A stretch of DNA of 57,948 nucleotides. Source: an uncultured archaeon. Its GTDB lineage: Archaea > Asgardarchaeota > Thorarchaeia > Thorarchaeales > Thorarchaeaceae. The position numbers and the translations under genes are program-made. Below the pieces are notes generated by a model, which was not told the DNA's origin, did no database searches, and saw nothing but the letters and a program-made list of their open reading frames with translations. Position 1 is the first letter of the stretch. Each line of letters begins with the position of its first letter. Shown here piece after piece: positions 1 through 15,500 of the stretch. The stretch spans positions 1-57,948 of the forward strand of contig CAYYQL010000015.1 of assembly GCA_964473825.1 (NCBI GenBank), written 5' to 3'.

Positions 1-633
1 TAGTCGAGAAGAGGGACCTTCTCCGACAGCAGACCAGGTATCTCACATCCAGAGTGACCCTGATGCGGAATAACTGGGAGAAGAAGCACGGTGAGGACCA
101 TCCACGACCCGGGCATCTGAGGAAGAAGGAGCGTCGTCTTGCAGCCATCTGGCGCAAGGTACGCAGGCTGGACAGGGAGATTGCCAGACAGATTGCATCA
201 GAGGCCGTGTGGTTCTGTGAGCGCCACGGCGTCAAGACCCTGTATCTGGAGAACCTGAAGAACTACCAGCCGCCCAGGGGCTATGGCACTCACTCGTGGA
301 GATTATCGAGCAATCTCTGGTCCAAGGTACTTGACACTATCCGGTACATGCGGCAGACCCTCGGGCACCGCTACGGCGGGATCTGGACGGTAAGCCCGGC
401 GTGGACTTCTCAGACCTGCCATGTCTGTGGGGAGCGGGGAGTCCGGGTAGAGAATCCGGACTCGATACTGGAGTACCGAGGTGGTGAGTACTTCTACTGT
501 GGGAGGTGCGATGAGCACTTCCATGCCGATGTGAATGCGGCACGAAACATCATTCACGTGCACAATCACCAGTCCAGTGCCATTGCTGGACGGACAGCTT
601 GATATCCAGGTTTGTCCAACTAACAATCAACGG
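1..633 (+). mobile_element. Right part of an IS200/IS605- or IS607-family element (tnpB plus structured right end), truncated by the window edge
   Basis: TnpB ORF, then two hairpins (GTCCAG 572-577 / CTGGAC 586-591; GGACA 592-596 / TGTCC 613-617) and ...AATCAACGG, then an abrupt switch at 634 to a glycyl-radical enzyme C-terminus. The exact end (630-633) is uncertain. Confidence 0.75.
3..602 (+). CDS. tnpB: TnpB RNA-guided endonuclease, C-terminal part (5' truncated; frame open from position 3)
   Basis: RuvC-II Glu (LYLENL), SPAWTSQTCHVCG...YCGRC zinc ribbon, RuvC-III HADVNAARNI. No stop codon upstream of 54 in this frame. Confidence 0.92.
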   Translation, partial: VEKRDLLRQQTRYLTSRVTLMRNNWEKKHGEDHPRPGHLRKKERRLAAIWRKVRRLDREIARQIASEAVWFCERHGVKTLYLENLKNYQPPRGYGTHSWRLSSNLWSKVLDTIRYMRQTLGHRYGGIWTVSPAWTSQTCHVCGERGVRVENPDSILEYRGGEYFYCGRCDEHFHADVNAARNIIHVHNHQSSAIAGRTA

Positions 634-708
634 TACAATGCCTTCTTCGCCCAGATTGGCAGGGAATTGCAGGAAGAAATCATAGCAAGAACGGAGCACA
701 GCATCTGA
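634..708 (+). pseudogene. 3' fragment (last 24 aa) of a glycyl-radical enzyme (PFL-like family) gene, separated from its 5' part by the TnpB element
   Basis: Manual translation gives YNAFFAQIGRELQEEIIARTEHSI*, matching the GRE C-terminal pattern (RVxG)Y-S/N-A-x-F-x-x-L-x-x-E-x-Q-x-E-I-I-x-R-T-E-H. Its TGA (706-708) overlaps the ATG of the activase gene. Confidence 0.85.
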
Positions 709-1688
709 TGACACTTGGAGGCTATATCACCAATATTCAGAGATGCTCTACAGAGGACGGGCCAGGTATTAGAACTACGCTGTTCCTCAAAGGATGTCCA
801 CTTCACTGCATCTGGTGCCACAACATAGAAACGATTGACAACACCCCTCAAGTGGTATGGAATGCAACCAAGTGCATCGGGGATCGAGCCTGCATCGAAG
901 CATGCACACAGAAGGCATTGGAGCTTACGGACGAAGGGATGCTTATAGATCACAGGGCCTGCAACCTCTGCGGAAACTGTGAAGAAGTCTGCCCCACAGG
1001 TGCAATAGAAGTCATGGGCAAGCTTCGCAATGTCGAAGACCTTGTCGATGAACTTGCTCGAGACGCCCCCTTCTTTGAAACATCTGAGGGAGGAGTTACA
1101 ATATCTGGAGGAGAACCGCTGCTGCAGCATGATTTCACTGTGGCCATCGCAAGCGGATTGAAGCAGCGCGGGATACATGTGGCACTTGATACGACAGGCT
1201 ATGCCAGCGAAGCTGTATGGAAGGAGACTGTCAGTATAACAGATCTGGTTCTCTTAGACATCAAGCTAATGGATGAATCTAGACACAGACAGTACACAGG
1301 TGTCGGACTGGAAACGATACTCCGAAATGCAAAGATGCTCGCAGATTTGGACATACCAACATGGATTCGTACCCCCGTCATTCCGGGTCATACTGACAAT
1401 GTCGAGAACATCCGAGCAATTGCCGGCTTCGTTGCAAAAAACATGCCCAACGTTCTCAGATACGACTTATTGGCATTCAACAAGATGTGTCAGGACAAAT
1501 ACAAGCTATTCGGACTGGAATATCCTCTGAAAGATCTTCCATTGATGAAGAAGCAAACAATGCTTAGACTTGTGCAGACAGCGGAGAGAGAGGGGATCAA
1601 GCAGGTAACTTGGTCAGGCATGACGGCTCGTGAAGCATCTGATATTCAAGAAGTGAAAACAGAAAGGAGGACGGCCCACTGTGGATGA
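708..1688 (+). CDS. Glycyl-radical enzyme activating protein (radical SAM, with 2x[4Fe-4S] ferredoxin insert)
   Basis: DGPGIRTTLFLKGCPLHCIWCHN (CxxxCxxC), CNLCGNCEEVCP ferredoxin motif, GGVTISGGEP, DTTG. Confidence 0.95.
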   Translation: MTLGGYITNIQRCSTEDGPGIRTTLFLKGCPLHCIWCHNIETIDNTPQVVWNATKCIGDRACIEACTQKALELTDEGMLIDHRACNLCGNCEEVCPTGAIEVMGKLRNVEDLVDELARDAPFFETSEGGVTISGGEPLLQHDFTVAIASGLKQRGIHVALDTTGYASEAVWKETVSITDLVLLDIKLMDESRHRQYTGVGLETILRNAKMLADLDIPTWIRTPVIPGHTDNVENIRAIAGFVAKNMPNVLRYDLLAFNKMCQDKYKLFGLEYPLKDLPLMKKQTMLRLVQTAEREGIKQVTWSGMTAREASDIQEVKTERRTAHCG

Positions 1689-2511
1689 GATACTCAGCAC
1701 TGAACTCGAAGAAGCACTTGGCGTGTTTGAAACTCCGAAGTTCATGATAACAAAGAACGAAGAGGAAGAACCAAACTCTGCCTTGGTCATGACCTGGACT
1801 GTATACGAAGGAAATCAGCTAGTCTACGGCGATTTCATGGGTCACAAAACAAGAAAGAACTTGGAGGCAGGCAATGAACAGATTGGGCTGTTGGTTCTCA
1901 AGATGAACCTTGATTACTGGAACATTGGTGCCAGATTCGATTCCTACCACGTTGCTGACGACATCTATGAGTTCATGGCGATGACTCCTCTATTCCGATA
2001 CAATCAGTATACGAACGTTCGTGGAGCAGGGCTTGCTGAAGCTGTCTGGGCAAGTGAGAAGAGGCACATCTCTAAGCTCTCAGTCTTGAAGACGTACCTC
2101 AAGTCTAGGCTTGGAAAGAGGAAGGTGGGTGACTTCTCCAGCGGTAAAGAGAAGATGCCCCCACCGGTCTTAGACCGGTTTGATACGATGACCTCTGTGA
2201 AGACTCTTGCATATGTCGATGAGTCTGGATTCCCTGGGGCGATTCCTGCTTTTGGCATTCTCCCCGTTTCTGAAAACCTCCTTGTCGTAGATAGGAGTGA
2301 AGAGAGGAATCGTAGGATAAACCTAGCTGACGGTCAGAGAGTTGCCGTTTCTCTGGTGACCCAAGAACCTGCGGCTTTCCAAGTGAAGGGCGAGTTCAAG
2401 CCAATAGACAACAGCACAGCCTGCATTGTTGTAGACCGAGTCTATACCTGTTCTCTTCCTCGACCGGGATTGCGCATCGATACGCCACTCCTAAATCGTG
2501 AGAAGCTATAG
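1681..2511 (+). CDS. Tandem pyridoxamine-5'-phosphate-oxidase-like (split-barrel) protein
   Basis: Two similar halves (KFMITKNEEEEPN... / KTLAYVDESGFP...) and a KTRKNL motif typical of PNPOx-like FMN-binding barrels. Overlaps the activase stop. Confidence 0.6.
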   Translation: MDEILSTELEEALGVFETPKFMITKNEEEEPNSALVMTWTVYEGNQLVYGDFMGHKTRKNLEAGNEQIGLLVLKMNLDYWNIGARFDSYHVADDIYEFMAMTPLFRYNQYTNVRGAGLAEAVWASEKRHISKLSVLKTYLKSRLGKRKVGDFSSGKEKMPPPVLDRFDTMTSVKTLAYVDESGFPGAIPAFGILPVSENLLVVDRSEERNRRINLADGQRVAVSLVTQEPAAFQVKGEFKPIDNSTACIVVDRVYTCSLPRPGLRIDTPLLNREKL

Positions 2512-2660
2512 ATCTCTTCCCATAAATGAAAGGCTTTGGTGACATCAATGAGGCAGAAGTAAGCTCAAGGGCACAACAGGTCCCGCGTACTCCGATACGG
2601 TTTTATAGTGCCTGATTTTATGCGAATTCGTTGAGAGATCATCCTAGTGAGGATTCACTT

Positions 2661-4643
2661 ATGGCAGAAACAATGTCAACCATGAAGTCTGCACTCACCC
2701 AGGAAACAGCCGAGGGGCAAAGCTTTGAGCCCGTGAGCACTAAGGCATCTCTGGGTGGGTTCTTAGGAGTAATAGCTGCTCTCTTGGGTCTTGTGGCTTT
2801 CTTGGCCACTGATTTGCTTCCTCTTGGTTCTGCTTTGCAGCTACCATTCCAAGGAGTACAGCTCATGAACAACCCGCTGTCTTATGCGCTTTCGACAGCA
2901 TTCGTCGCTCTCCTGGCAGTCAGTGTGCTTATCCAGACACGAGGCATAAGAGAACTGGGGACAAGACTTGAGTCTGCCCTCCCCAATCTGATGTATCTTG
3001 CCATTGTTGGCACTGCGTTTGCTGTGTATACGTACGGCGCAGGATTCAGTGTCAATCCTGAATCAGCATCTCAGGTCAGAATCTACGCTGCCGGCTTTGC
3101 TATTGCCGGACCGATTTTTGTGATCACATGGCAGTTGGCCAGCTCGGTCTACATGGACTCAACCAAGTCCTACCTAGGCATACTAGCCGGCCTAGGCAAT
3201 GGACTCTTTCTACCTGTTATGGCGATATCTTTCGCTCTTCCGGGTTTTTACGGTGTAGGCATTGTCCTGGCATTTGTTTTTCTACTACTTGGACAGATAG
3301 GGGTGATATTGTTCTGGAGAGCACCCTTTGGCCATGTTAGAGAGTTCGCTAGAAGCAGTGATGCCGGCAAGTTTGCCTTTGGCCTCACAGGGCTTCTCAC
3401 ATTTCTCATTGGGAGTGTTGCGGTCTTCTTCGGCCCTATCGGCTCGATGGAAGGAACAGCAGTGTGGTACCCATGGAATACTTCGGTGGTCGACACACTC
3501 GCTAAGACGCTGATTCTGGATACTCCACCTTGGGCTGTGCAGGCTCTGCTGTCTATGATGATCATCTGGGTAATGCTGGGTCCAAGACTCGGTTCCAAAG
3601 AACTCAAGGATACCGTGGTACGAGAAGATATCGTAGCTGGTGGCGAGAAGTACTTCATGCTGTTTCTTGCCATTTTCGGCGTCTGGGCGGCCTCACAGGC
3701 TAGCACCCTCACAAGCGGTGCGGCAGGATATACCATCTTCCTCACTATCTGTCCAGCCGCAATTGTCATCCTCATGGGAGCAGTCTATATGGGGGCTAAC
3801 GATGTCATCACCGGTCTGCCAATGGTAATCACTGGTGTTTTTCTGGTCCTTACACCACACTCTCTGGCATTCATGGTGACCATACCCTGGATCCTTGTGA
3901 TTATCACACAGACAGCCCTTACGATTGAAACCAAGGTTCGGGGACAGACTGCCTTCTCGCAAACACTTCTCACTGTTTTGGTCACGATAGGAGCATCACT
4001 GGCTTTCGTCCTGTTCATGCTGGGAGGCTTCGGCAGTGGGCCACCTGCCATCTGGCCCGCAAATCGTTGGTTCAATGTAACACTGTTCCAAGGAGTATCG
4101 ATTGCAGCACAGGCACCCACCATCATGGCAATTGTTGTTCTCACCCTCTTGGTGAGGAACTTTGCGGTTGCCGGTTATAGTTACGGGCAGCAATCTTCGA
4201 GCTCAGGAGTAATCAGAGGAATCACTGCCCTCTTCGCGCTCTTGTTGGTCATTATTGCCGGGAATTTTGATGTGACCCATCAAGCACTGACGGCAGCAGC
4301 AATCACTTTCGCACTCTACACGATAAGCTTCGTATTGGTAATATCGCTTAACCTGAATCTGGGCAACCGGATCTTGCAGGAAGGCCATGAACTCGAAGGC
4401 AACTTCATCAGGGTATCTGCCAGTGCTGGTCTTGTATTTGGCGCAGCCGTTGCCCTTGTGTCGTTTATCATATTCTCAGGATTCCCACCGGCGTCAGTTG
4501 TTGCCAGCGTCATCACAATACTGGTCACATTGATTGTTGGTCTTGAGATATGCCTTATGTTGGCCTGGTTCTCCGCAGGCATCAGACTGGGAATGATAAA
4601 AGGCGGTTTCAAGTACACAAAGCCAACTGATTTGGTGGAGTAG
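2661..4643 (+). CDS. Large polytopic membrane protein of unknown function
   Basis: Long ORF (track 2631-4643; ATG at 2661 preferred) made almost entirely of hydrophobic helices. Confidence 0.8.
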   Translation: MAETMSTMKSALTQETAEGQSFEPVSTKASLGGFLGVIAALLGLVAFLATDLLPLGSALQLPFQGVQLMNNPLSYALSTAFVALLAVSVLIQTRGIRELGTRLESALPNLMYLAIVGTAFAVYTYGAGFSVNPESASQVRIYAAGFAIAGPIFVITWQLASSVYMDSTKSYLGILAGLGNGLFLPVMAISFALPGFYGVGIVLAFVFLLLGQIGVILFWRAPFGHVREFARSSDAGKFAFGLTGLLTFLIGSVAVFFGPIGSMEGTAVWYPWNTSVVDTLAKTLILDTPPWAVQALLSMMIIWVMLGPRLGSKELKDTVVREDIVAGGEKYFMLFLAIFGVWAASQASTLTSGAAGYTIFLTICPAAIVILMGAVYMGANDVITGLPMVITGVFLVLTPHSLAFMVTIPWILVIITQTALTIETKVRGQTAFSQTLLTVLVTIGASLAFVLFMLGGFGSGPPAIWPANRWFNVTLFQGVSIAAQAPTIMAIVVLTLLVRNFAVAGYSYGQQSSSSGVIRGITALFALLLVIIAGNFDVTHQALTAAAITFALYTISFVLVISLNLNLGNRILQEGHELEGNFIRVSASAGLVFGAAVALVSFIIFSGFPPASVVASVITILVTLIVGLEICLMLAWFSAGIRLGMIKGGFKYTKPTDLVE

Positions 4644-4672
4644 CATCCTCACAAAGAGGCGGCGAAAAAAGC

Positions 4673-5431
4673 GTGGTTCCCTCGGGCTTTGAAAGAAGAC
4701 CGAAGGGAGCCCGCACTGCTTTTCTTCTCATTCATGGCTTTGGCGCACACGTAGACGAACTTGAAACATTGGGAGAATTTCTGGAGCAAAACAGCATTGC
4801 CTCTTTCTCCGTGAGCATTGCAGGACATGGCACCAGCCCTGAGGACTTAGCCGAGACAAACCGGCATGACTGGTATCATTCAGCAAAGGAAGGACTTGAG
4901 TATGTTCTAAGTTGGAAGAATGAAGTCACCTTTGTCTCAGGACTCTCTATGGGAGGACTTCTCACCCTTGCATTGGCAGCCAGAGAAGAAGGAATAGATG
5001 GTATCATTCCTATCTCGCCTGCAATCCTGTTCGGAGGTTTCTTGTCAAGATTAGTACCGATTGTCAAACACTTCATGCCGTATCGAAAAGTGGATCTCAA
5101 CAAGATGCCCGAGATGTATGATGTTATGAGGTTCAAGTATGATCGAGACCCCTTGGTTTCGATCGAAGAGCTTCTCGCCCTTGCCAAAGAAGTAAGAGAG
5201 GAACTGAATGAAATTGACTGTCCGGCTCTGATTCTGCAGTCAGGAGAAGACAAGACAGTAGACCCACGTGGAGCCGAACTCGTATTCAACAGAGTATCAT
5301 CAGAACACAAGCAACTCAGACTTGTCGCTGGGGCTGAACATGTGCTTACCTGCCATCCAACTAGACAACAAGCATACCCAATGATTCTCGATTTTGTCAG
5401 AGAAGTCGCTGGACAGATTAAACCCTCTTAG
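4673..5431 (+). CDS. Alpha/beta-hydrolase (carboxylesterase/monoacylglycerol lipase-like)
   Basis: LIHGF, GHG, nucleophile elbow GLSMGG, Asp in EDKTV, His in AEHVL. Confidence 0.92.
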   Translation: MVPSGFERRPKGARTAFLLIHGFGAHVDELETLGEFLEQNSIASFSVSIAGHGTSPEDLAETNRHDWYHSAKEGLEYVLSWKNEVTFVSGLSMGGLLTLALAAREEGIDGIIPISPAILFGGFLSRLVPIVKHFMPYRKVDLNKMPEMYDVMRFKYDRDPLVSIEELLALAKEVREELNEIDCPALILQSGEDKTVDPRGAELVFNRVSSEHKQLRLVAGAEHVLTCHPTRQQAYPMILDFVREVAGQIKPS

Positions 5432-6131
5432 TTAGAAACTGCTTCCGAGACTTAATCCCCAGGTCGGGGTAATCAGTAATCAGCCCATCGACATCCATTT
5501 CCCACAATCCAAGCATCATCTCAGGATCATTGACTGTCCACGGGAAAACCAGCAGACCCTCGCCGTGGGCCTCATCGATAAGATCTTGCTCAAGTATAAG
5601 GAACAGAGGGTGAAGACAGTTGGCTCCGAGCTCATTGGCATAAGATGCTACGTCATCCAGAGGTTCATTGAACAGCACCCCTGTTCGCGTAGTGTCGTCA
5701 ATCTCACGAAAACTTGCCAAGGTCTCGTGAAGAAACGAAGAAACGACAACATGTGAAGACATGCCAGAATCATCCAGTAGAACAGCGACCTCCGATTCTA
5801 TCTCCGGGACCTTAATCTCAATGTTCACTTTAGCCTTACCTTTCATCGCATTCAGCACATCTCGTAGCAGCGGTATTTGTTGTCCGTTTCCAAGATCGAA
5901 GGAAACAAGATCATCGTACTGCATCTCCGAAATGAGACCTTCACACTTGCAGAGTCGCGTCAAGTCGTAATCGTGGACGCACACTAACTGCCCGTCGGCC
6001 GTTCTCTGAACATCAAGCTCGACCATGTCAGCACCCATGTTTATTGCCGTCTGAAAGGAGAGAAGCGTATTCTCGGGAGCGTATGCTGCTGCCCCTCGGT
6101 GTCCAATGACCAGTTTCTTGTCCCACACCAT
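5418..6131 (-). CDS. Glycerophosphodiester phosphodiesterase
   Basis: IGHRGAAAYAPENT, VELDVQRTADG, HD, NIEIK, PWTVND, GLITDYP. Confidence 0.95.
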   Translation of the reverse strand: MVWDKKLVIGHRGAAAYAPENTLLSFQTAINMGADMVELDVQRTADGQLVCVHDYDLTRLCKCEGLISEMQYDDLVSFDLGNGQQIPLLRDVLNAMKGKAKVNIEIKVPEIESEVAVLLDDSGMSSHVVVSSFLHETLASFREIDDTTRTGVLFNEPLDDVASYANELGANCLHPLFLILEQDLIDEAHGEGLLVFPWTVNDPEMMLGLWEMDVDGLITDYPDLGIKSRKQFLTKRV

Positions 6132-6186
6132 ACCCTCACCAACTTTCTTGTCCTGCCCTGCCTCCCTTTCTGGTCATCAAGCGACC

Positions 6187-6540
6187 TCAGTCATCGGGTC
6201 GAGCCAAACCTGTACCGCCACATCTCGGACAGGTCTGATATCCATCAGGGCCTTCAATCCTACCCATTCCATTACAGTAGTAGCAGTCCTCTTCTGGTTG
6301 TTCAAGAGTGCTATCAAACTCCTTGACCATCGCGCCTCCGATTCCAATCAACACGACAGCGATAAACATGGTAATCAGAGCTTGGAGATATAGGCCGGGT
6401 ACGGGGAGGACAAATAAGACTGAGAGTGAAAGAACGAACACGCCTGCTGTTAACAGTATCAAACCCTTGCTTCTACGCTCCAATCTTATGCACTCCCTTG
6501 ATAGCGGATATCCATTGACACCCCTGTCTCCTTTATACAT
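6187..6540 (-). CDS. Small two-TM membrane protein with a C-terminal DnaJ-type zinc finger
   Basis: Two hydrophobic segments followed by CYYCNGMG and CPRCGGTG (two CxxCxGxG). Start codon uncertain. Confidence 0.75.
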   Translation of the reverse strand: MYKGDRGVNGYPLSRECIRLERRSKGLILLTAGVFVLSLSVLFVLPVPGLYLQALITMFIAVVLIGIGGAMVKEFDSTLEQPEEDCYYCNGMGRIEGPDGYQTCPRCGGTGLARPDD

Positions 6541-6650
6541 TGTGGACTGTACTCATTAATGACAAGGTTCAGGATGGAATCAATCCTTCAGACCTACCAC
6601 CCTAAGAGATAATAGAAACAGAAAACATCAGACCAAGGTAGGCGAATTCC

Positions 6651-7565
6651 ATGTCAAGGTCTGATTTGTTCTCAAAGTATACGGAGATCTATCGGAAGGC
6701 CCAAGCAAAAGAGATTGTACCAGAAGGTCAATTTGTCCGTCAATTCACCGATATTCCAGACGTGGGTCTGGACATCGGAGTCTTCTTCAAGTCTCGCACG
6801 GAGAAGGACCCGAAGCAAGTGCATATCGGTGACGCTATTATGCCTGAGATATCGAAACATGAAGGTCTACTTGAGGCACAGCAGAAGACCTATCTCAGCC
6901 GTACAATCATCTCGAACATCAAAGGTCTCCAGTACCTTAGAGTTGTCATCTCGGCAGGCGAACTATGCGAAACGGCCGAGGAGCGAACGAGATTCATGAA
7001 GAAAGCACAGAGGATTCTCGATGTTTTCATCAGGAAAGCGCGCAATGCAGTTCATTTTGGAGACTTCTCCGCTTTCAGATTTGACAAGAGAATCACCACG
7101 CTTAACGACTTTCTAAGCAAGACTCTCAAGATGGACGAAGTCTCAATTGAAGCCGCATCGATACCTTTCCTTATGGCAGAACCTGAATATGTTGTCCTCA
7201 CCGGCGGAAACCTCCTAATCATAGGAGAAGAACCGCGGGTTCAGCATGGTGTATTTCATCTCACTGGCGGCATCGGTTACACATTTGACAAGAAGATTGG
7301 AGCTGTAAGTGAGGAGAGGCTGTTCAAGGTAGGTGTCAACATGGAGAGCCTCGGAATCGATGAAACATTCATGGATGGAATGATGTCGCGTATAGGTGAA
7401 GACTTTCAGAATAGAGTCCATTCAGTTATGTTCTCAGATATCTGGAAACGCAGTGACGCAAAGCCGCTTGCTATCAATGTAGGAAACGACCTTTTGATTA
7501 AGATTGCGCCTGGCAGCGAGACCTGGTCCGGAGTGTTTGAGGTCTACGTAAGACCGCCTACATAA
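6651..7565 (+). CDS. Hypothetical soluble protein (304 aa)
   Basis: Long ORF with ATG start and normal composition; no motif recognised. Confidence 0.75.
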   Translation: MSRSDLFSKYTEIYRKAQAKEIVPEGQFVRQFTDIPDVGLDIGVFFKSRTEKDPKQVHIGDAIMPEISKHEGLLEAQQKTYLSRTIISNIKGLQYLRVVISAGELCETAEERTRFMKKAQRILDVFIRKARNAVHFGDFSAFRFDKRITTLNDFLSKTLKMDEVSIEAASIPFLMAEPEYVVLTGGNLLIIGEEPRVQHGVFHLTGGIGYTFDKKIGAVSEERLFKVGVNMESLGIDETFMDGMMSRIGEDFQNRVHSVMFSDIWKRSDAKPLAINVGNDLLIKIAPGSETWSGVFEVYVRPPT

Positions 7566-9210
7566 TCCGAAATGAATCGATGGCAAAGACTACCGCTCGG
7601 AACGCGTATATTCTGAATGTGTATGTCACTGATTGCTCGCCTACGTCAAGAATTGCATCCCTGAGATCTGCCACTGAATCACCGCCCTCGTTCCTCATAA
7701 GTGACTCAAGCGAACTGATGGCTACAGCGCTATTCACGTTGCTGGAACATATCACCACATCCTGAGCGATAGCCTCAACTGTTTGATACACAGGATTGAC
7801 ACGGTCGTGGATGTCCAAGACTTGCCCGACAATCCCTAGCCTACAGCCACATCCTATTCCAAAGTCTGCAAGAGCTCTTGCGCTTCTTGAGTACGAGTGT
7901 ACTAGATACTCACCAACATCCCCATCCATCTCCAGTGAGAACTTGCTCCTCATAATATCGATCTCAAGAAAGTCTACATCTCTGAGAATGGAGGGAGTAA
8001 CTCCATTGGTCAGCATCAAGGTTGCATCGTTATCCGCAAAATCATCAATCACAAAGGAATCCACAAGAAGACCAAATGACAGATCAGCGTGAGAGAATAC
8101 TTCTTTAAGACCCAAGAAGGAAACCTCAAGAGCACTCTGGTTAATGACGCTTATCGCATCTTCTGCCATGTGGCTGAATCCTCCGAGATTCAAAGACCGC
8201 ATCGGAGCAAGTAGTGTTGCCCACTCTATTCCTGACATGCGCACATCAGCCAGAACCTGAACCGATGAGTTCGCTATTCCAAGAGTCGAGATAGTTTCAA
8301 GAATTGTCTGTGCGCCCTGTTTCAAATCGGAGTATACCTGAGTGTGTGTATTCTGATCGCCAAGACTGTTGTTATCGAGAAGATACGACGATCGGTTGCT
8401 GTGTAAAGACACCCTTAGAGGTATAGTATTGTTGCTTGCCTCGATTAACCATGCTGTTGCTTGTTGAAGCGAATCGTTGTTACCAATAAGGTACTGAATA
8501 TCGATTCCAAATCCTGTATCGTGCAATGCTTGCAGCAAGTTCCCACTCGGGAGAACGGTTTCGGATGTGTACTCAATAGAGGCCGTTGGCACGGTCAGAT
8601 ATACTTCGGGCATCTGGTCCAAGGATGCAATGGCAATCGGTGTCTGGCCCATGATATACACCGAAGCGGGAAATACCAATCCGATAAGATTGAGTATAAC
8701 GATATAACCCACAGTTCTCTTTCCCAGTGAACGGATGCTTCCCTGAGGTCTTAGGCGTCCATCTATCAAGACAACCAGAATGGCAATCATGTTCAGTGCT
8801 GACATCAAATAGAACATAGACTGGATGGGCGCAATCAGTAGGAATATGGCCCCTGCAATGGTGAAGATAACAAGAGGTACAATCCCGTTACGAGAATCAT
8901 AGTATGCTTTCAGCATAGAAGGGAGGAACACGAGTAACGGCAAAGCATAGAATGCGAGGGGGAGTGAGTCTATCAATGATAATCCGAGGCTTGTGGCTCT
9001 GTACGTAACAGCCAGAAGAGCATAGACCATGAGAACTATGTCAATGAACATGACTAAGCAGACAAGAATCTTGAGAAGAGCAGAGAGGTTGGGTTTTCCC
9101 CTTATGACCTTCTGTAGACCCGCACGCTTTCTGCCATAGCGGGTAATCGATGTCTGAAGGCTTGCGACAATGGCCTCTGGTTCGTCGTCTTCTTGCAGGT
9201 CCTCTTTCAT
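7558..9210 (-). CDS. Membrane protein: ~5 N-terminal TM helices plus a large, probably extracytoplasmic domain
   Basis: Hydrophobic N-terminal third; soluble C-terminal part with N-x-S/T sequons. Confidence 0.75.
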   Translation of the reverse strand: MKEDLQEDDEPEAIVASLQTSITRYGRKRAGLQKVIRGKPNLSALLKILVCLVMFIDIVLMVYALLAVTYRATSLGLSLIDSLPLAFYALPLLVFLPSMLKAYYDSRNGIVPLVIFTIAGAIFLLIAPIQSMFYLMSALNMIAILVVLIDGRLRPQGSIRSLGKRTVGYIVILNLIGLVFPASVYIMGQTPIAIASLDQMPEVYLTVPTASIEYTSETVLPSGNLLQALHDTGFGIDIQYLIGNNDSLQQATAWLIEASNNTIPLRVSLHSNRSSYLLDNNSLGDQNTHTQVYSDLKQGAQTILETISTLGIANSSVQVLADVRMSGIEWATLLAPMRSLNLGGFSHMAEDAISVINQSALEVSFLGLKEVFSHADLSFGLLVDSFVIDDFADNDATLMLTNGVTPSILRDVDFLEIDIMRSKFSLEMDGDVGEYLVHSYSRSARALADFGIGCGCRLGIVGQVLDIHDRVNPVYQTVEAIAQDVVICSSNVNSAVAISSLESLMRNEGGDSVADLRDAILDVGEQSVTYTFRIYAFRAVVFAIDSFRIM

Positions 9211-9312
9211 AATCTCACAGCGTCCATTGGTTGCTTAATGGCTTTTGCGTGTCGGTTCTGCGTTTGAACCGATAAGAACAAGTTGACAAGATGACCGACC
9301 CACAGGTGTACT

Positions 9313-10509
9313 ATGATTCATGATTGTGCTGTCATCGGAGCTGGACCAGCAGGCTCAACCTGTGCCCGCTATCTTGCTAAGAAGGGATTCTCAGTCATAC
9401 TCCTGGATCGTTACGAATTCCCCCGCGACAAACCTTGTGGGGGCGGATTCGCGTACAAGCTTCTCGATGAGTTCCCTTACCTGAGAAAGCACGAACCAGA
9501 ACTCATTGAGGGTATCTGCAAGGTGGGTGTGGTCCACTCACCAAATCGGAGGGTCATACTTCGTGGTCGGGTCGAGATGGCTGTTACACGCCGTAGTGTC
9601 TTCGATAATACTCTTGTACAAGAGGCGATAGATGCGGGGGCTGAACCTGCATTTGGAAAGCAGGCCAAAGATGTGGTCATCAAGCATGATGGTGTAACTA
9701 TCGAGTTGTCTTCAGGGAATACAGTCAGGTCCAGAGTCGTGGTTGGTGCAGACGGAGTCAACAGCGTGACTGCAAGAACCACTGGATTACACAGGAGATG
9801 GGCACACAATAGCGTGACACCCTGTCGCGTAGCCGAGGTGCCCATGGCAACAGATGAAATCGACAGAATCTATGGGATCGAGAGAGAATATCATTTTTTC
9901 GCGAACCTGGAAGGGCGACCGGGGTATGCTTGGATTTTTCCAAAGAGGAGTACCGTGAATCTTGGACTAGGTGTTGTCGCCACACACGCTTCAGGCCTTC
10001 CTTCGCAGTTCAATCGTTTTGTTGGATATCTAACGAGTCGAGGGATGTTAGACAAAGCCTTCAATCCGTCTGCTGCAAAGGGGGCACTTGTGCCAACTGG
10101 CGGCACTCTCGATAGAACATACACAGATAGATGCATCCTCATAGGGGACTCAGCAGGTTTTGTCAATCCTCTAACTGGTGGGGGAATCTCCTATGCAATG
10201 CACGCAGCAAGATATGCTGCTCATGTGATTGGCAATGCTCTTGAGTCAAGTGATGTTTCAGCGGACAGGTTATCAGAATATCAAGACCTGTGGTGGGAGG
10301 ACTTCGGAGGATTGCTGAATCAAATGGTCAAGGTTCAGAAGATTCTGACAAGCCCGTATACAGACCTTTTCTTTGAGATAGGTAAGCGAGACGAGAAGAT
10401 CCAAGAGATAGTCACATTATCCATGGCCGAATCCACAGAATCACGGACTGACACCAAACGCCTAGTTGCACGGACTCTCTGGGTCTGCCTACGAGAAGCA
10501 CTAACGTGA
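9313..10509 (+). CDS. Geranylgeranyl reductase family FAD-dependent oxidoreductase
   Basis: VIGAGPAGS, FPRDKPCGGG, VGADG, GYAWIFPK, IGDSAGFVNPLTGGGI. Confidence 0.93.
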   Translation: MIHDCAVIGAGPAGSTCARYLAKKGFSVILLDRYEFPRDKPCGGGFAYKLLDEFPYLRKHEPELIEGICKVGVVHSPNRRVILRGRVEMAVTRRSVFDNTLVQEAIDAGAEPAFGKQAKDVVIKHDGVTIELSSGNTVRSRVVVGADGVNSVTARTTGLHRRWAHNSVTPCRVAEVPMATDEIDRIYGIEREYHFFANLEGRPGYAWIFPKRSTVNLGLGVVATHASGLPSQFNRFVGYLTSRGMLDKAFNPSAAKGALVPTGGTLDRTYTDRCILIGDSAGFVNPLTGGGISYAMHAARYAAHVIGNALESSDVSADRLSEYQDLWWEDFGGLLNQMVKVQKILTSPYTDLFFEIGKRDEKIQEIVTLSMAESTESRTDTKRLVARTLWVCLREALT

Positions 10510-10673
10510 TGGTGTCTGTCAGGTTCACGCATAGGGGGTGTTCTGACGTCTAATTCAGGACACTCTGATCCTGAGATATGTTTCCATTACTCTCATCCAA
10601 AAGGAATAAAACAACCTGCAACCAATACGTGGCTATTAAGGTATAGAACCTCTAGGATGAGGAGAGAAGCAAA

Positions 10674-12350
10674 GTGGAAGAAAGACCATGGCACAAACAC
10701 TACGTTGGAGGAACTCCAGCGGAGATTGAGATTGATGACAGACCACTCTGGTGTCAGCTTGATGACGCAGTAAGAGATTTTCCAGACAATGTGGCGCTGT
10801 ATTTTGAAGGACTCGAGATGACCTATCGCGAAATAGGTGAACTCGTGGATAGAGCCGCGAATGGCTTCACCAAACTTGGTGTCAAGAAAGGAGATGTTGT
10901 GGCAATCATGCTCCCAAACTGCCCCCAGTTCGTCATTGCGTACTTCGGTGCCCTGAAAACAGGGGCAACTGTGACGCCGGTGAACCCTTTGAGTATGCCC
11001 AAGGAGCTTAGGATATACCTCCAGGATACGGCAGCTAAGACGATTGTCACGTTCAACTACTTTTACAAGATTGTCAATGCTGTAAGAGAAGAGAGCAATC
11101 TGGACAATGTCATAGTCACCGCCGCATGGGATCACATGAGTCCTATCAAGAGATTTCTAGCAGCAAAGCTAGTATATCGAAAGCAAATGAAGGACGTACC
11201 ACCCCTTGTTGAAGGGGATGTTGAGTGGCTTGATTTCCTTGAGGACACAGAGCCTGTTTCGCCAAAAGTTGAAATTGACTCGTCCAAGCATATTGCAGTC
11301 TATCAGTTCACGGGAGGTACAACAGGAATTCCAAAGGCTGCAATGCTGACGCATGATAATTTGAAAGCGAACTGCGCGCAGTGTGGAGCATGGATGGATT
11401 GGATGGCGGAGCGAGGAAAGGAAGTGTTTGTTGCGGCTCTGCCGCTTCAGCACATCTTCGGACAGACCGTTTCCATGAATCTGGCCATGTCCTGGGGTTG
11501 CGGGATGATTCTTGTACCCGACCCGCGCGATATCAAACACCTGCTGGAGCTTATTGACAAGCTAAAACCCACCTTCTTCCCCATCGTTGCGACACTTGCT
11601 ATCGCAATCTACTCTAGCGAGCATGTGGAGAAGTACGATATCACATCGTTGAAGCTTTCAATTGCCGGGGCTATGGCCCTTCCTGCAGAGGTAACGCGGA
11701 AATTCGAGGCGGCGACAAATTCAATTATTGTTGAGGGATATGGACTATCCGAAGCCTCACCAGTTACACACGCCAATCCGCTAGACAAGGACCTGAGAAA
11801 GATAGGTTCTATCGGGTTGCCATTTCCGAGCACAGACAGCAGGATTGTTGACCTCGATGATCGAAGCAAGGTTCTCCCACCCGGGGAGGTAGGCGAGCTT
11901 TCGGTCAAGGGTCCACAAGTCATGCAGGGATATCACAACCGTCCTGATGAAACGGCTGATGTTCTGACTGACGATGGATGGCTGTTCACAGGTGACATCG
12001 CGAAGATGGATGAGGACGGCTGGACATACATAGTCGATCGGAAAAAGGATCTGATCAATGCGAGCGGTTACAAGGTCTGGCCAAGAGATGTCGAAGAAGT
12101 GCTCTTCGAACATCCGAAGATCAGAGAAGCCGCTGTCGTTGGCGTTCCTGATGAAGTGAGAGGAGAAACCGTCAAGGCGTTTGTAGTTCTCGAAGAGGAA
12201 CAAGACTTGACCCTTGAGGATCTCAGAACCTTCTGCAAAGAGAAGATGGCGGTCTACAAGGTTCCCACGGATCTGGAGATAGTTGATACGCTACCCAAGA
12301 CTGCTGTTGGAAAAGTGCTGAGAAGAGAACTCAGAGAACAGGAAGACTAG
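10674..12350 (+). CDS. Long-chain-fatty-acid--CoA ligase (FadD-like)
   Basis: QFTGGTTGIPK, EGYGLSEASP, TGDIAKMDEDG, IVDRKKDLI, LPKTAVGKVLRR. Confidence 0.95.
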   Translation: MEERPWHKHYVGGTPAEIEIDDRPLWCQLDDAVRDFPDNVALYFEGLEMTYREIGELVDRAANGFTKLGVKKGDVVAIMLPNCPQFVIAYFGALKTGATVTPVNPLSMPKELRIYLQDTAAKTIVTFNYFYKIVNAVREESNLDNVIVTAAWDHMSPIKRFLAAKLVYRKQMKDVPPLVEGDVEWLDFLEDTEPVSPKVEIDSSKHIAVYQFTGGTTGIPKAAMLTHDNLKANCAQCGAWMDWMAERGKEVFVAALPLQHIFGQTVSMNLAMSWGCGMILVPDPRDIKHLLELIDKLKPTFFPIVATLAIAIYSSEHVEKYDITSLKLSIAGAMALPAEVTRKFEAATNSIIVEGYGLSEASPVTHANPLDKDLRKIGSIGLPFPSTDSRIVDLDDRSKVLPPGEVGELSVKGPQVMQGYHNRPDETADVLTDDGWLFTGDIAKMDEDGWTYIVDRKKDLINASGYKVWPRDVEEVLFEHPKIREAAVVGVPDEVRGETVKAFVVLEEEQDLTLEDLRTFCKEKMAVYKVPTDLEIVDTLPKTAVGKVLRRELREQED

Positions 12351-12554
12351 GTCAGTATAAGAGCGGCCAATGAATCACAAATTTGATTCACAAGGTGAAC
12401 GATGGGTATCTCCTGTCAAATGGAGGTACCCATTCCAGTCTTCTTTCTTCTGTCGTCATTCAACACGTCAACGACAGTAAGAGGCTGCAATCATCCCGTC
12501 AACTGTATTGCGGCAGGCAAATAATCACACCCGAGTCATTCGGTATTTTCTATG

Positions 12555-15500
12555 CTATCCATTCCATTCTCCAGGCAGCGATAGAGAGGCAAGCCGTTTC
12601 TTGACCATAAAAGCTACAAGGCCCATAATCGCTACACCACTCATGACCGGTATTGTAGATGCATCCATTGGAATTCTAAAGGAGGGCGAGTTCACAACCA
12701 CAACAAACGCCCTGCTGATATTATAGAGAACCGGTAGCCCCTGCAACGTGATATTCAGGATGTGCTGACTTTCCGACTCAAACTGATACCAAAGGTCGAG
12801 TGTTGAAGATGAGCCCACTCGAGCAGTCCATTCTTTCAACCATCCTCCATCTGGGCCATACAGGGTCACTTTGAGGGTTCCCTTCCAACCGGGTGATGTA
12901 CCTTCGACAAGAGTAACTACTTCTCCACTCCAATTGTATCCAACATCAGGAGAATCGGTGTTCTGCAGAGCCATGGTGACAATGGGGTCTATTACAATGG
13001 TTCCTTTGAACTGGACGGGAGAGTTGCGGTCAGAGCCGCCGTAAAGAATCTCCACAGAGTAGTTTCCTGCAGGCAGAAGTTCTATGAGAACCTGTATCTG
13101 CCCTCTCCTGTTGGTCTCGAACGAACTGCTCCTGACTAGTGTGCTATCGCACAGGAACCTGACTGTCACCAGTTCGTTGGCTACGTCCTTCAGTCCTGCA
13201 CTCACGTGAACAGAAATAGTCCCTGCCTGTGTGTATGTTACACGTTGTGGCATAGCAACATCTAGGGAGCTTTCATGACGTACAAGCAAGTCACAAGAGA
13301 GTAATGCTCCACTTACAAGCTTCTCTCCTTCGTATTCCACCTGAATGGAGTAGTTTCCGACTGAGCGAGGCGTGAATGATAGGATGGCCTGACCATCGTT
13401 CAGCTCGATCCGTGTCCTTGTGCTCATGAAACCACCATAGACCTCATCACCATCTGGGTCGTACACGCTGACCCAGACAGATCCATTGATTGCTTTATGC
13501 ATCGTGTCTTCCAAGCGGATCCTGAGCGTCTGCAGGTTGTTCACAATTCCATTTGCATCTGTATCAATAAGTTGTAGGAGCGATTTCGAAGTGACTGTAA
13601 AGGTCAGTGAAGCGCTGTTCCCAACTCGAGTCAAAGAGTTGTGGACAACCACGCTCAATGTGTAGTTCCCAACGGGAAGCCCTTGGAGAGCAATAAGGAA
13701 TGAACCGTTAAGGGATAGAAGATCCTGCAGGCTCAATTCTCCATCTGGCCCAATCAGTTCTATGCTAGTATCGAAAACTGAGACATTGAGCTCATGGCCC
13801 ACCTCGTCCACAATCGTAATGGAGATGTTCTCATTCTCGGCACGGTCCATCGTCTGCGGTGCTTCGCAATGAGGAATGGCCTGACCTAGGACAAACAGGT
13901 CATCTATTCCGGTACTACTCGGATGATAGTGTTCTGTTCCTTCGAAGCGAAAAATGATCGTGTAGAGTCCCATTCTCTCAGGCAAGATAATTATGGTTTC
14001 AGCTTCAACTGAATGCTGAATCGCAGACCCCGAGTCCACCATGCCACTGGTCACATGGTATACCTCGTATCGAATAGTACGTCCCTCAAGCGGGTTGCCG
14101 CCAGAGTCGGAGAGAAGGACAGATACATTCAATGGAACGAGACCTGCTACAACCTCTGCCCCGTCCCACGTTACGGTAATCTCAGTACCGTAACGGACAT
14201 TCACATTGACCTCGGCGTCCGAGGAAAGATATACTCCGAGTCCGTCAAAACTGGCATCGAGCGTCCAGACTCCCTGGCTGGTTAACTGCTTGCTCCACGT
14301 AACATGCCCAGTCTCGTTTGTCGTGAGCACGACCAAGAAGCTCTTTTCCAACCCGCGTAATTCGGCGTCCACCTCTTTCCCCACGAGTGGATGTCCAGCA
14401 TAGTCAACGAGCTGGAGGGTTGTGTCAAAGACATCGCCTACTTCAAGCTCTGCTGAGTATTCAACTACGGTCAGTTGCGTCGCAGCGTAGATGATCAGGT
14501 CTCTGTCCTCGTTGAATGCATAGATGGTGCTGGAACCTTCATATGAAACCCCTATCTCATGGAGACCAGCGTGCTGCGGACTGAAAACAAAGGTGCCTCT
14601 TCCCTCACTTATTGGCACCGAAATCCAGTTGTAATAAGACCCCAACTTCAGCAATACTCCGTAGGGATCTGTAACTGTGACCCTTACGCTGATATCAGAG
14701 ACTGGCAACCCGAGCTCGTTCTCAATAGATATGGTCATGTTGACTTCGCTCGTCACAATCGGGGGTGGGCTTACAGTATCAACGGATAGACTACACTCTG
14801 TCACCACAGCGATGTTGGATTGGCTTGCTCCGCCAAGCATGAAATCGTCAGAGGGTGTAGCCCGAACCGTGAAGAAACCATGATTCTCTTGAGCCGTATA
14901 CGACACTTCAGCATAGCCCGTAGTATTTGTCATTGCATTCTCCGACCAGACGGGCACAAGGTCTGTACCCAGGACTTCGAAAGTGATACTGATACCCTCT
15001 GGAGCCTGAGCAGAAAGGATGTAGAACAGTGTGATGGTGTCGAAGATATCCATCGTCGATGCTGATGTGCCAAGAGAACCTGATACGGTCTCCATCACTG
15101 ATATACTAGAACTGGTGGAGTTGTAGAGGTAGTAGACATCGCCTGTGTGAGTGAGTGTGACGGTCGCACTGCCTCTGGCATCAGGAGTCCAAGATAAGGT
15201 CAACAGCCCATCGCTTGAAACTCGACCGGCCTGAAAGACAACCTCTCCGGCCACTGAGATACTGATTGCCAAGTCCCTCCCGGCGATATAAGACCCAGAG
15301 GGATCTAGAAGACCGACATGGATAGCAAAGGCTTCTCCGAGATGGGCTGTTGTGTCATGTAGTAGTAGAACGTCTGGAGTAACACGTACACGCTGAACGT
15401 TGGTAACCGCATCTGCTGCATTCAGTCCCTCTCCGGCATAGCAGGCGCCGACAAGATAGTCGCCCACCGATTCGAAGGTATGGGCAATGCTGCAAGTGCC

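Follow-up and report, generated by a model that had tools for sequence, protein, structure and literature searches.

The window analysed here, a stretch of 57,948 nucleotides, is the entire contig C15 of the host assembly G000, a bin of 103 contigs with 95.7% completeness, 4.4% contamination and a smallest contig of 1,582 nt. TnpB homologues from public genomes mark its source as a Thorarchaeota (Asgard) MAG. Its first part carries the 3' end of a tnpB gene together with the right end (RE) of the corresponding mobile element, the last codons of a glycyl-radical enzyme (GRE) gene and the gene for the GRE activase, followed by an ORF of unknown family:

3 to 602, plus strand: TnpB-like RNA-guided nuclease gene, C-terminal 199 codons and stop (of 720 aa), from PF07282 and similarity to the copy on contig C26.
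232 to 633, plus strand: probable scaffold of the guide RNA (omega-RNA), in overlap with the 3' end of tnpB; the extent is estimated from TnpB-less remnant copies and the 3' hairpins.
569 to 633, plus strand: conserved RE module, hairpins CCAG...CTGG and GGAC...GTCC and then single-stranded ...ACTAACAATCAACGG, from copy alignment and predicted fold.
632 to 634, plus strand: crossover core GG(T), which the end of the element has in common with the GRE target (GGG/TAC), the breakpoint being ambiguous within it, from junction alignment.
634 to 708, plus strand: GRE gene remnant, codons 776-799 (YNAFFAQIGRELQEEIIARTEHSI) and TGA, from orthologue and paralogue alignment.
708 to 1688, plus strand: GRE activase, intact (radical SAM and two ferredoxin-type clusters), from TIGR02494 and Pfam.
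1681 to 2511, plus strand: ORF of unknown family, 276 aa, overlapping the activase stop and syntenic in relatives.

The 199 amino acid product of window 3-602 matches the Pfam model Cas12f1-like_TNB (PF07282, 1.8e-12) and is 96.5% identical to residues 522-720 of the full 720 amino acid copy on C26, whose C-terminal half is matched by Cas12f/Cas12u profiles. It retains the RuvC-II Glu region (LENL), the Zn ribbon (CHVCG...CGRC) and RuvC-III (HADVNAARNI). Since the window is a whole contig, the truncation of tnpB at its start is the end of a contig at a repeat, the usual assembly break, and not a biological one; TnpB residues 1-521 and everything up to the left end (LE) of this copy are missing from the assembly. 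Similarity to the other element copies ends at 633/634, at ...AATCAACGG(T). The 65 nt RE module is found in about 18 copies in G000, all with the end AAT[G/C]AACGG and mostly with a T next, which follows directly in 12 of 15 aligned copies. The predicted fold of the RE contains 19 pairs, five of which show compensatory changes, arranged in two conserved hairpins and a single-stranded tail, and TnpB-less remnant copies (C1 and the C78 fragment) start at the equivalent of window 219-232. The hairpins and the tail would fit a guide-RNA scaffold, in which case the guide would be the flanking DNA, here the GRE tail, and the first 20 nt or so of the GRE remnant would be the built-in guide of the omega-RNA of the C15 copy. 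A 57-codon ORF (window 535-708) starts with an ATG within the 3' end of tnpB, is open across the whole RE into the GRE tail and stops at the TGATG in which the activase begins. The same frame is open through the RE of the C26 copy (98 aa), which may be chance or a translational coupling device.

Bases 634-705 encode YNAFFAQIGRELQEEIIARTEHSI, and the stop codon (TGA, 706-708) shares a base with the start codon of the activase (ATG, 708-710). Same-genus and same-family genomes were compared, among which G001, G002 and G009 are relatives with an intact GRE. The tail is 96%, 92% and 88% identical, respectively, to the last 24 residues of their orthologous GRE and 64% identical to a paralogous GRE on contig C17, which ends in ...RVAG/YSDYFVDVGRELQDEIIARTLHDRI and a stop; judging from these alignments the homology is far beyond chance. 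In relatives of this type an intact 799 amino acid GRE (...RVTG/YNA...) lies directly before the orthologous activase. The intact orthologues read ...GTG ACA GGG/TAY AAT GC... versus ...CAACGG/TAC AAT GCC in the window, which places the break exactly at Gly775/Tyr776, with an ambiguity of 2-3 nt (GG, GGT) common to element and target. A preliminary description of this DNA had placed the end of the TnpB element, in the sense direction, immediately before the Tyr codon adjoining the radical Gly, with the stop of the GRE tail coupled to an intact activase gene. All of this holds, tnpB and the GRE tail being on the same strand, and the empty-site alleles which it proposed to look for in related genomes exist, an uninterrupted RVTG/Y being found in nine out of nine relatives. 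The disrupted enzyme belongs to the PFL2/glycerol-dehydratase family with 549.9 bits, which is below the family cut-off of 678. A functional GRE has the barrel and the RVxGY...IIxRT motif in one polypeptide, and only Y...IIARTEHSI is left on C15.

The activase next to this remnant has the features of a GRE-activating enzyme, namely CxxxCxxC and ferredoxin-type clusters, with a TIGR02494 score of 318.8 bits against a cut-off of 174.35 and additional matches to the Pfam models Radical_SAM, Fer4_12 and Fer4. It is the only gene of the PFL-AE type, and the only strong homologue, in G000, and it is under purifying selection (dN/dS 0.20 versus G002). The paralogous GRE on C17 (C17:51791-54262; 2792-5263 of locus L008) is an intact HypD equivalog, that is a trans-4-hydroxy-L-proline dehydratase, with 1216 bits against a cut-off of 1100; it is followed by rpl3 and rpl4 and has no adjoining activase. 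The window activase was probably kept to serve this activase-less HypD-type GRE. Downstream of the activase (window 1681-4643) are found the 276 amino acid ORF, which has no family, and a 670 amino acid multi-pass membrane protein. Both are syntenic in relatives, where dN/dS values of 0.08-0.11 show strong purifying selection. The overlap of the 276 amino acid ORF with the end of the activase gene, together with its synteny, assigns it to the old GRE operon, of which the two genes are probably the rest, perhaps a substrate transporter.

The way in which the element family selects its sites is evident from eight gene-less mini-elements of about 190 bp, in which both ends are visible as ...GG(G)T/ACACCAACAGC...TTGGACA......AATGAACGG/T..., and from one larger insertion in locus L044 (MAG CAZLEV010000005, similar to G002):

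C1:168905-169091, C3:119519-119707, C3:20043-20231 and C29:6812-7000: mini-elements (G000) with shared LE and RE.
C40:21265-21456, C48:14103-14292, C74:2152-2335 and C81:2866-3052: mini-elements (G000) with shared LE and RE.
L044:1503-6400, versus empty C64:7648 in G000: element whose two ends are present, with 3.1 kb of cargo and what remains of a TnpB gene.

Each mini-element is bracketed by GGT, and the LE side reads GGGT/ACACCAACAGC...TTGGACA, followed by the TATA-like GAGTTTATATCC; the minimal mobile unit is about 190 bp, of which about 110 nt are the LE with its TATA-like box. Three independent pairs of sites, occupied in G002 and empty in G000, read CCAGGGG/TTATG, GCAAGGG/TTGTG and AAGAGGG/TGCTC, and in the comparison of L044 with C64 of G000 a 4.9 kb insertion shows both junctions and no loss of target. 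The 3.1 kb cargo of L044 is 91% identical to C13:18254-21374 of G000. The target of the element family is RGGG^T, its core being GG, as for IS607 elements. The GRE site itself fits the rule, the intact gene reading ACAGGG/TAT. The involvement of a GG core of the IS607 type, suggested in the preliminary description, is supported by the mini-elements, the three occupied/empty pairs and the GRE.

The junction lies at the radical Gly because the RGGG^T target coincides with the GGG-TAY codons of this lineage. Of the nine uninterrupted relatives, G002, G001 and G009 alone use GGG for the radical Gly, the others having GGA, GGC or GGT. The GRE gene contains six sense and six antisense GGGT sites, of which Gly775-Tyr776 is one in 12. 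This is a simpler cause than the preference of a self-splicing element for a conserved motif, which had been suggested previously, and it replaces it. Other copies of the element are intergenic or located at tRNA and other sites, and none is in-frame in a gene. A canonical LE directly upstream of tnpB is absent in 10 full copies. Two TnpB copies without the giant ORF described below, C78:1801-2110 (L005) and L032, keep its first 10 codons or so, and a short string common to both partners (GCAATCTCGG) marks the point where these codons join part of a different TnpB copy (aa 594-626); C78 and L032 are deletion derivatives, conserved between G000 and G002.

The closest experimental parallel to these ends is in the IS607 family. 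In the CboIStron of Clostridium botulinum TnpA_S has been shown experimentally to integrate at TGGG with strict requirement for GG, the TAM of its TnpB is TGGG and the scaffold ends in UCGG (PMC10690162). The Thorarchaeota family shares with IS607 and CboIStron the GG core at both junctions, a G-rich target (RGGG as compared to TGGG), a scaffold ending in ...CGG directly before the guide and the position of TnpB on the right arm. It differs from CboIStron by the lack of a group I intron, by a TnpB of about 720 instead of about 400 amino acids, by the conserved T after the core and by the size of its units, the smallest being of 190 bp and the largest, with cargo, above 8 kb. As to the tnpA gene that the preliminary description proposed to look for, a serine recombinase (PF00239) is absent from G000, G001 and G002, whereas a relative, G021, carries one together with the same type of LE and a TnpB of the family. 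That locus (L062, corresponding to G021:C7:58000-67500, reverse strand) is composed of GAGGGT/LE, a 227 amino acid serine recombinase with a MerR-HTH, cargo of about 5.7 kb that bears no annotation, and a large TnpB in the same orientation, which is 53% identical to the C26 copy and continues past the end of this stretch; the LE is of the type found in the mini-elements. As no recombinase is present in G000, G001 or G002, a serine recombinase as the enzyme making the junctions is inferred from this relative and from the chemistry of the ends.

Sister TnpB copies (C26, C2, L031, L034, L036, L043 and L038) have as their divergent partner a giant ORF of about 1,555-1,880 amino acids, which is present in G000 and in other Thorarchaeota MAGs. 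TnpB loci associated with aCas1 in Asgard archaea have been described (Altae-Tran et al. 2023; Makarova et al. 2020). The pairing of an oversized TnpB with a giant ORF has been catalogued as aCas1-TnpB, groups Cas1H-Asgard-1/-2 (Altae-Tran et al. 2023, PMC10691335); in these loci a conserved T is reported after the scaffold, and the hypervariable DNA beyond it is said to end with GTTCACTCA. The Thorarchaeota host, the divergent giant ORF in sister copies and the single T after the scaffold agree with this description. No motif resembling GTTCACTCA was found within 150 nt in 26 copies, and the empty sites show the "hypervariable" DNA after the scaffold to be host flank. In distinction to aCas1-TnpB, the GG core and the absence of a long target duplication make the junction look like that of a serine recombinase rather than of Cas1. 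No Cas1 domain was detected in the giant ORF by Pfam, PADLOC, NCBIfam or PDB profile search, the Pfam Cas1 model matching only the CRISPR cas1 on C19; the AF2 model of the giant protein (pLDDT 49.5) is too poor for a fold search. Past the stop of the giant ORF, at the far end of the element, there is no conserved sequence. Contig C39 starts within an 85% copy of the giant ORF, which may be the partner of the tnpB copy on C15; the partnership is only tentative, since G002 has that element at the same site.

With the GRE protein of G002 as query the only matches in G000 are aa 1-414 on C25 (91.5%), aa 776-799 on C15 and, at 36%, the paralogue on C17. Codons 1-414 lie mid-contig on C25 (13901 to 12660, minus strand). 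By whole-locus blastn, positions 1-7061 of the G002 locus match C15:7706-632 and positions 8173-14000 match C25:12690-18517, and the 1,111 nt of the G002 GRE between the two have no match; this collinearity shows that C15 and C25 derive from either side of a single ancestral locus. Codons 415-775 (about 361 codons) have no trace on any of the 103 contigs in tblastn and blastn searches at E<=10, the absence of 1.1 kb from a 95.7% complete bin being weaker than absence from the genome. On C25 the GRE homology is lost between 12690 and 12660, the frame staying open for about 30 unrelated codons to a stop, past which is found the antisense strand of a small Zn-ribbon-like ORF and of a wHTH gene. 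This breakpoint has neither an LE motif (ACAGC...TTGGACA) nor a clean GGG^T; a second GGG^T site was considered and rejected, since in the alignment with three orthologues weak homology runs about 20 nt further. The preliminary description had anticipated a 5' part of the GRE upstream of the element: it exists, but only as codons 1-414, on another contig and fused to a defence island, and without codons 415-775 or thereabouts. The 5' remnant shows no relaxed selection, and given its dN/dS of 0.10 it appears that either the disruption must be recent or pairwise dN/dS must be insensitive to it.

The island adjoining the GRE 5' half (C25:1-10000, L027) contains genes for a D12-class Dam methyltransferase, a MORC-like HATPase_c_3 ATPase, a RiboL-PSP HEPN protein, GmrSD_N (DUF262) and an N4/N6 methyltransferase. 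The first 830 nt of C25 are repeated (97%) at the end of C65. As for the missing left junction, a 17 nt match at C1:205288 is due to chance and lies within a ferredoxin-type gene. A degenerate pattern of the junction between RE and tail had 0 matches in a search of metagenome contigs, and the same locus was not found on a longer public contig, the exact activase having no public record.

Both junctions, the rule for the target, the conserved gene order and the failure to find a ribozyme are direct observations, and on this basis we favour, with a probability of about 0.8, an ordinary transposon knockout by an IS607-type element together with a later or linked rearrangement of the GRE gene. An IS607-type Thorarchaeota element, whose right arm would be the 720 amino acid TnpB gene and the guide-RNA scaffold, would have integrated into the GRE at the RGGG^T formed by the GGG of Gly775 and the TAY of Tyr776. 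The insertion would have cut off the last 24 codons, which stayed fused to the RE and overlapping the activase start. The GRE would now be a pseudogene in pieces, with codons 1-414 on C25 joined at a non-canonical breakpoint to the defence island and codons 415-775 or thereabouts lost, most simply by a second deletion or rearrangement in the dead gene, and nothing would splice it back together. The order of events, insertion and then second rearrangement, would follow from this reading, as would a guide in the RE flank directed against uninterrupted GRE alleles and the transcription of the activase by read-through from tnpB. A gene in pieces, a secondary breakpoint with no transposon signature and an intact neighbour are all as in ordinary IS inactivation with erosion of the pseudogene; what differs is that the insertion point is the catalytic glycine, through the codon choice GGG-TAY.

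The alternative put forward in the preliminary description, an IStron-like or otherwise splicing-competent element which restores the GRE mRNA, predicts a spliced junction made of ...ACAGG(G) of GRE codon 775 and TACAATGCC. It has in its favour the sense insertion of a tnpB-bearing element into a protein-coding gene, at a codon boundary of a conserved motif, with IS607-type ends as in the group B IStrons and with a preserved tail and intact activase. IStrons, however, in which a group I intron is combined with an IS200/605 or IS607 element, are defined by an intron of class IA2 and have been found only in Firmicutes and Fusobacteria, with none known in Archaea (Tourasse et al. 2014, PMC4227781), and no group I or II intron was found by Rfam cmscan (E<=10 or E<=5) in window 1-3000, C26, C78, C2, C1, L031, L044 or the C25 junction, a set which comprises the 3' part of the C15 copy, the nearest full copy and, with L031 and L044, two complete elements of relatives, the 5' part of the C15 copy itself being absent from the assembly. 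The mobile copies of about 190 bp leave no room for a ribozyme core, and the other copies are not in-frame gene insertions. The upstream "exon" ends at codon 414 and is joined to antisense genes on C25, and because it is truncated and misjoined splicing cannot restore the enzyme. This alternative is thus extremely improbable, the ribozyme core that had been proposed for the element having no match in the sequences searched. Erroneous assembly is also highly improbable: a metagenome bin with 4.4% contamination, in which contigs break at repeats, could contain a chimeric or mixed-strain join between RE and tail on C15 or between GRE and island on C25, but the former is a canonical RE end on a canonical target, as at three verified sites, and the latter lies mid-contig in unique sequence and shares no repeat of k-mer length with the orthologous GRE.

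The remaining alternatives accept the knockout and differ in how the middle of the gene was lost. A single event, in which a large composite IS607-type element integrated and replaced 1.1 kb of the GRE, its left part consisting of the defence island and further cargo and its right part of giant ORF and TnpB, would make sense of the island next to the GRE 5' half and of the cargo carried in the family, which is 4.9 kb in L044 and 5.7 kb between tnpA and tnpB in G021. It is unlikely, given that the C25 breakpoint has no end of the element and no clean target, that the insertion in L044 left its target entire, and that parts of the island are located elsewhere in G002, whose GRE is intact. Two independent insertions, of the island at about codon 414 and of the TnpB element at 775, would need no deletion if the 1.1 kb in between were unassembled or unbinned. 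Repeats or variable DNA would lie on both sides of such a piece, in a bin with no contig below 1,582 nt and from which the 5' half of the C15 element is itself absent. Against this, codons 415-775 are without trace, and a contig carrying them should extend into unique island DNA and be long enough to be binned, so that we regard this possibility, too, as doubtful.

The knockout by an IS607-type element, as an overall result, will not surprise specialists. It closes the lead of an archaeal IStron in a protein-coding gene, which was attractive and wrong, and it provides a checkable rule for the large-TnpB elements of Thorarchaeota, namely RGGG^T, a GG core and a scaffold ending in CGG, which ties them mechanistically to IS607 and not to integration of the Cas1 type. 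A wider reading, which is rather unlikely in its entirety, would see in the RE at 633 the right-hand limit of a large IS607-type element that carries cargo, comprises island, giant ORF and TnpB, and integrated at the radical Gly codon; its guide would match the GRE tail, TnpB with an RGGG TAM would cut uninterrupted alleles at the catalytic site, and transcription running on from tnpB would maintain expression of the activase on behalf of the HypD paralogue. The locus also documents an orphan GRE activase, the survival of which is probably due to the dependence on it of a second, HypD-type GRE, and illustrates how a synonymous codon choice, GGG for the radical Gly, can turn a catalytic motif into the target of a site-specific transposon.
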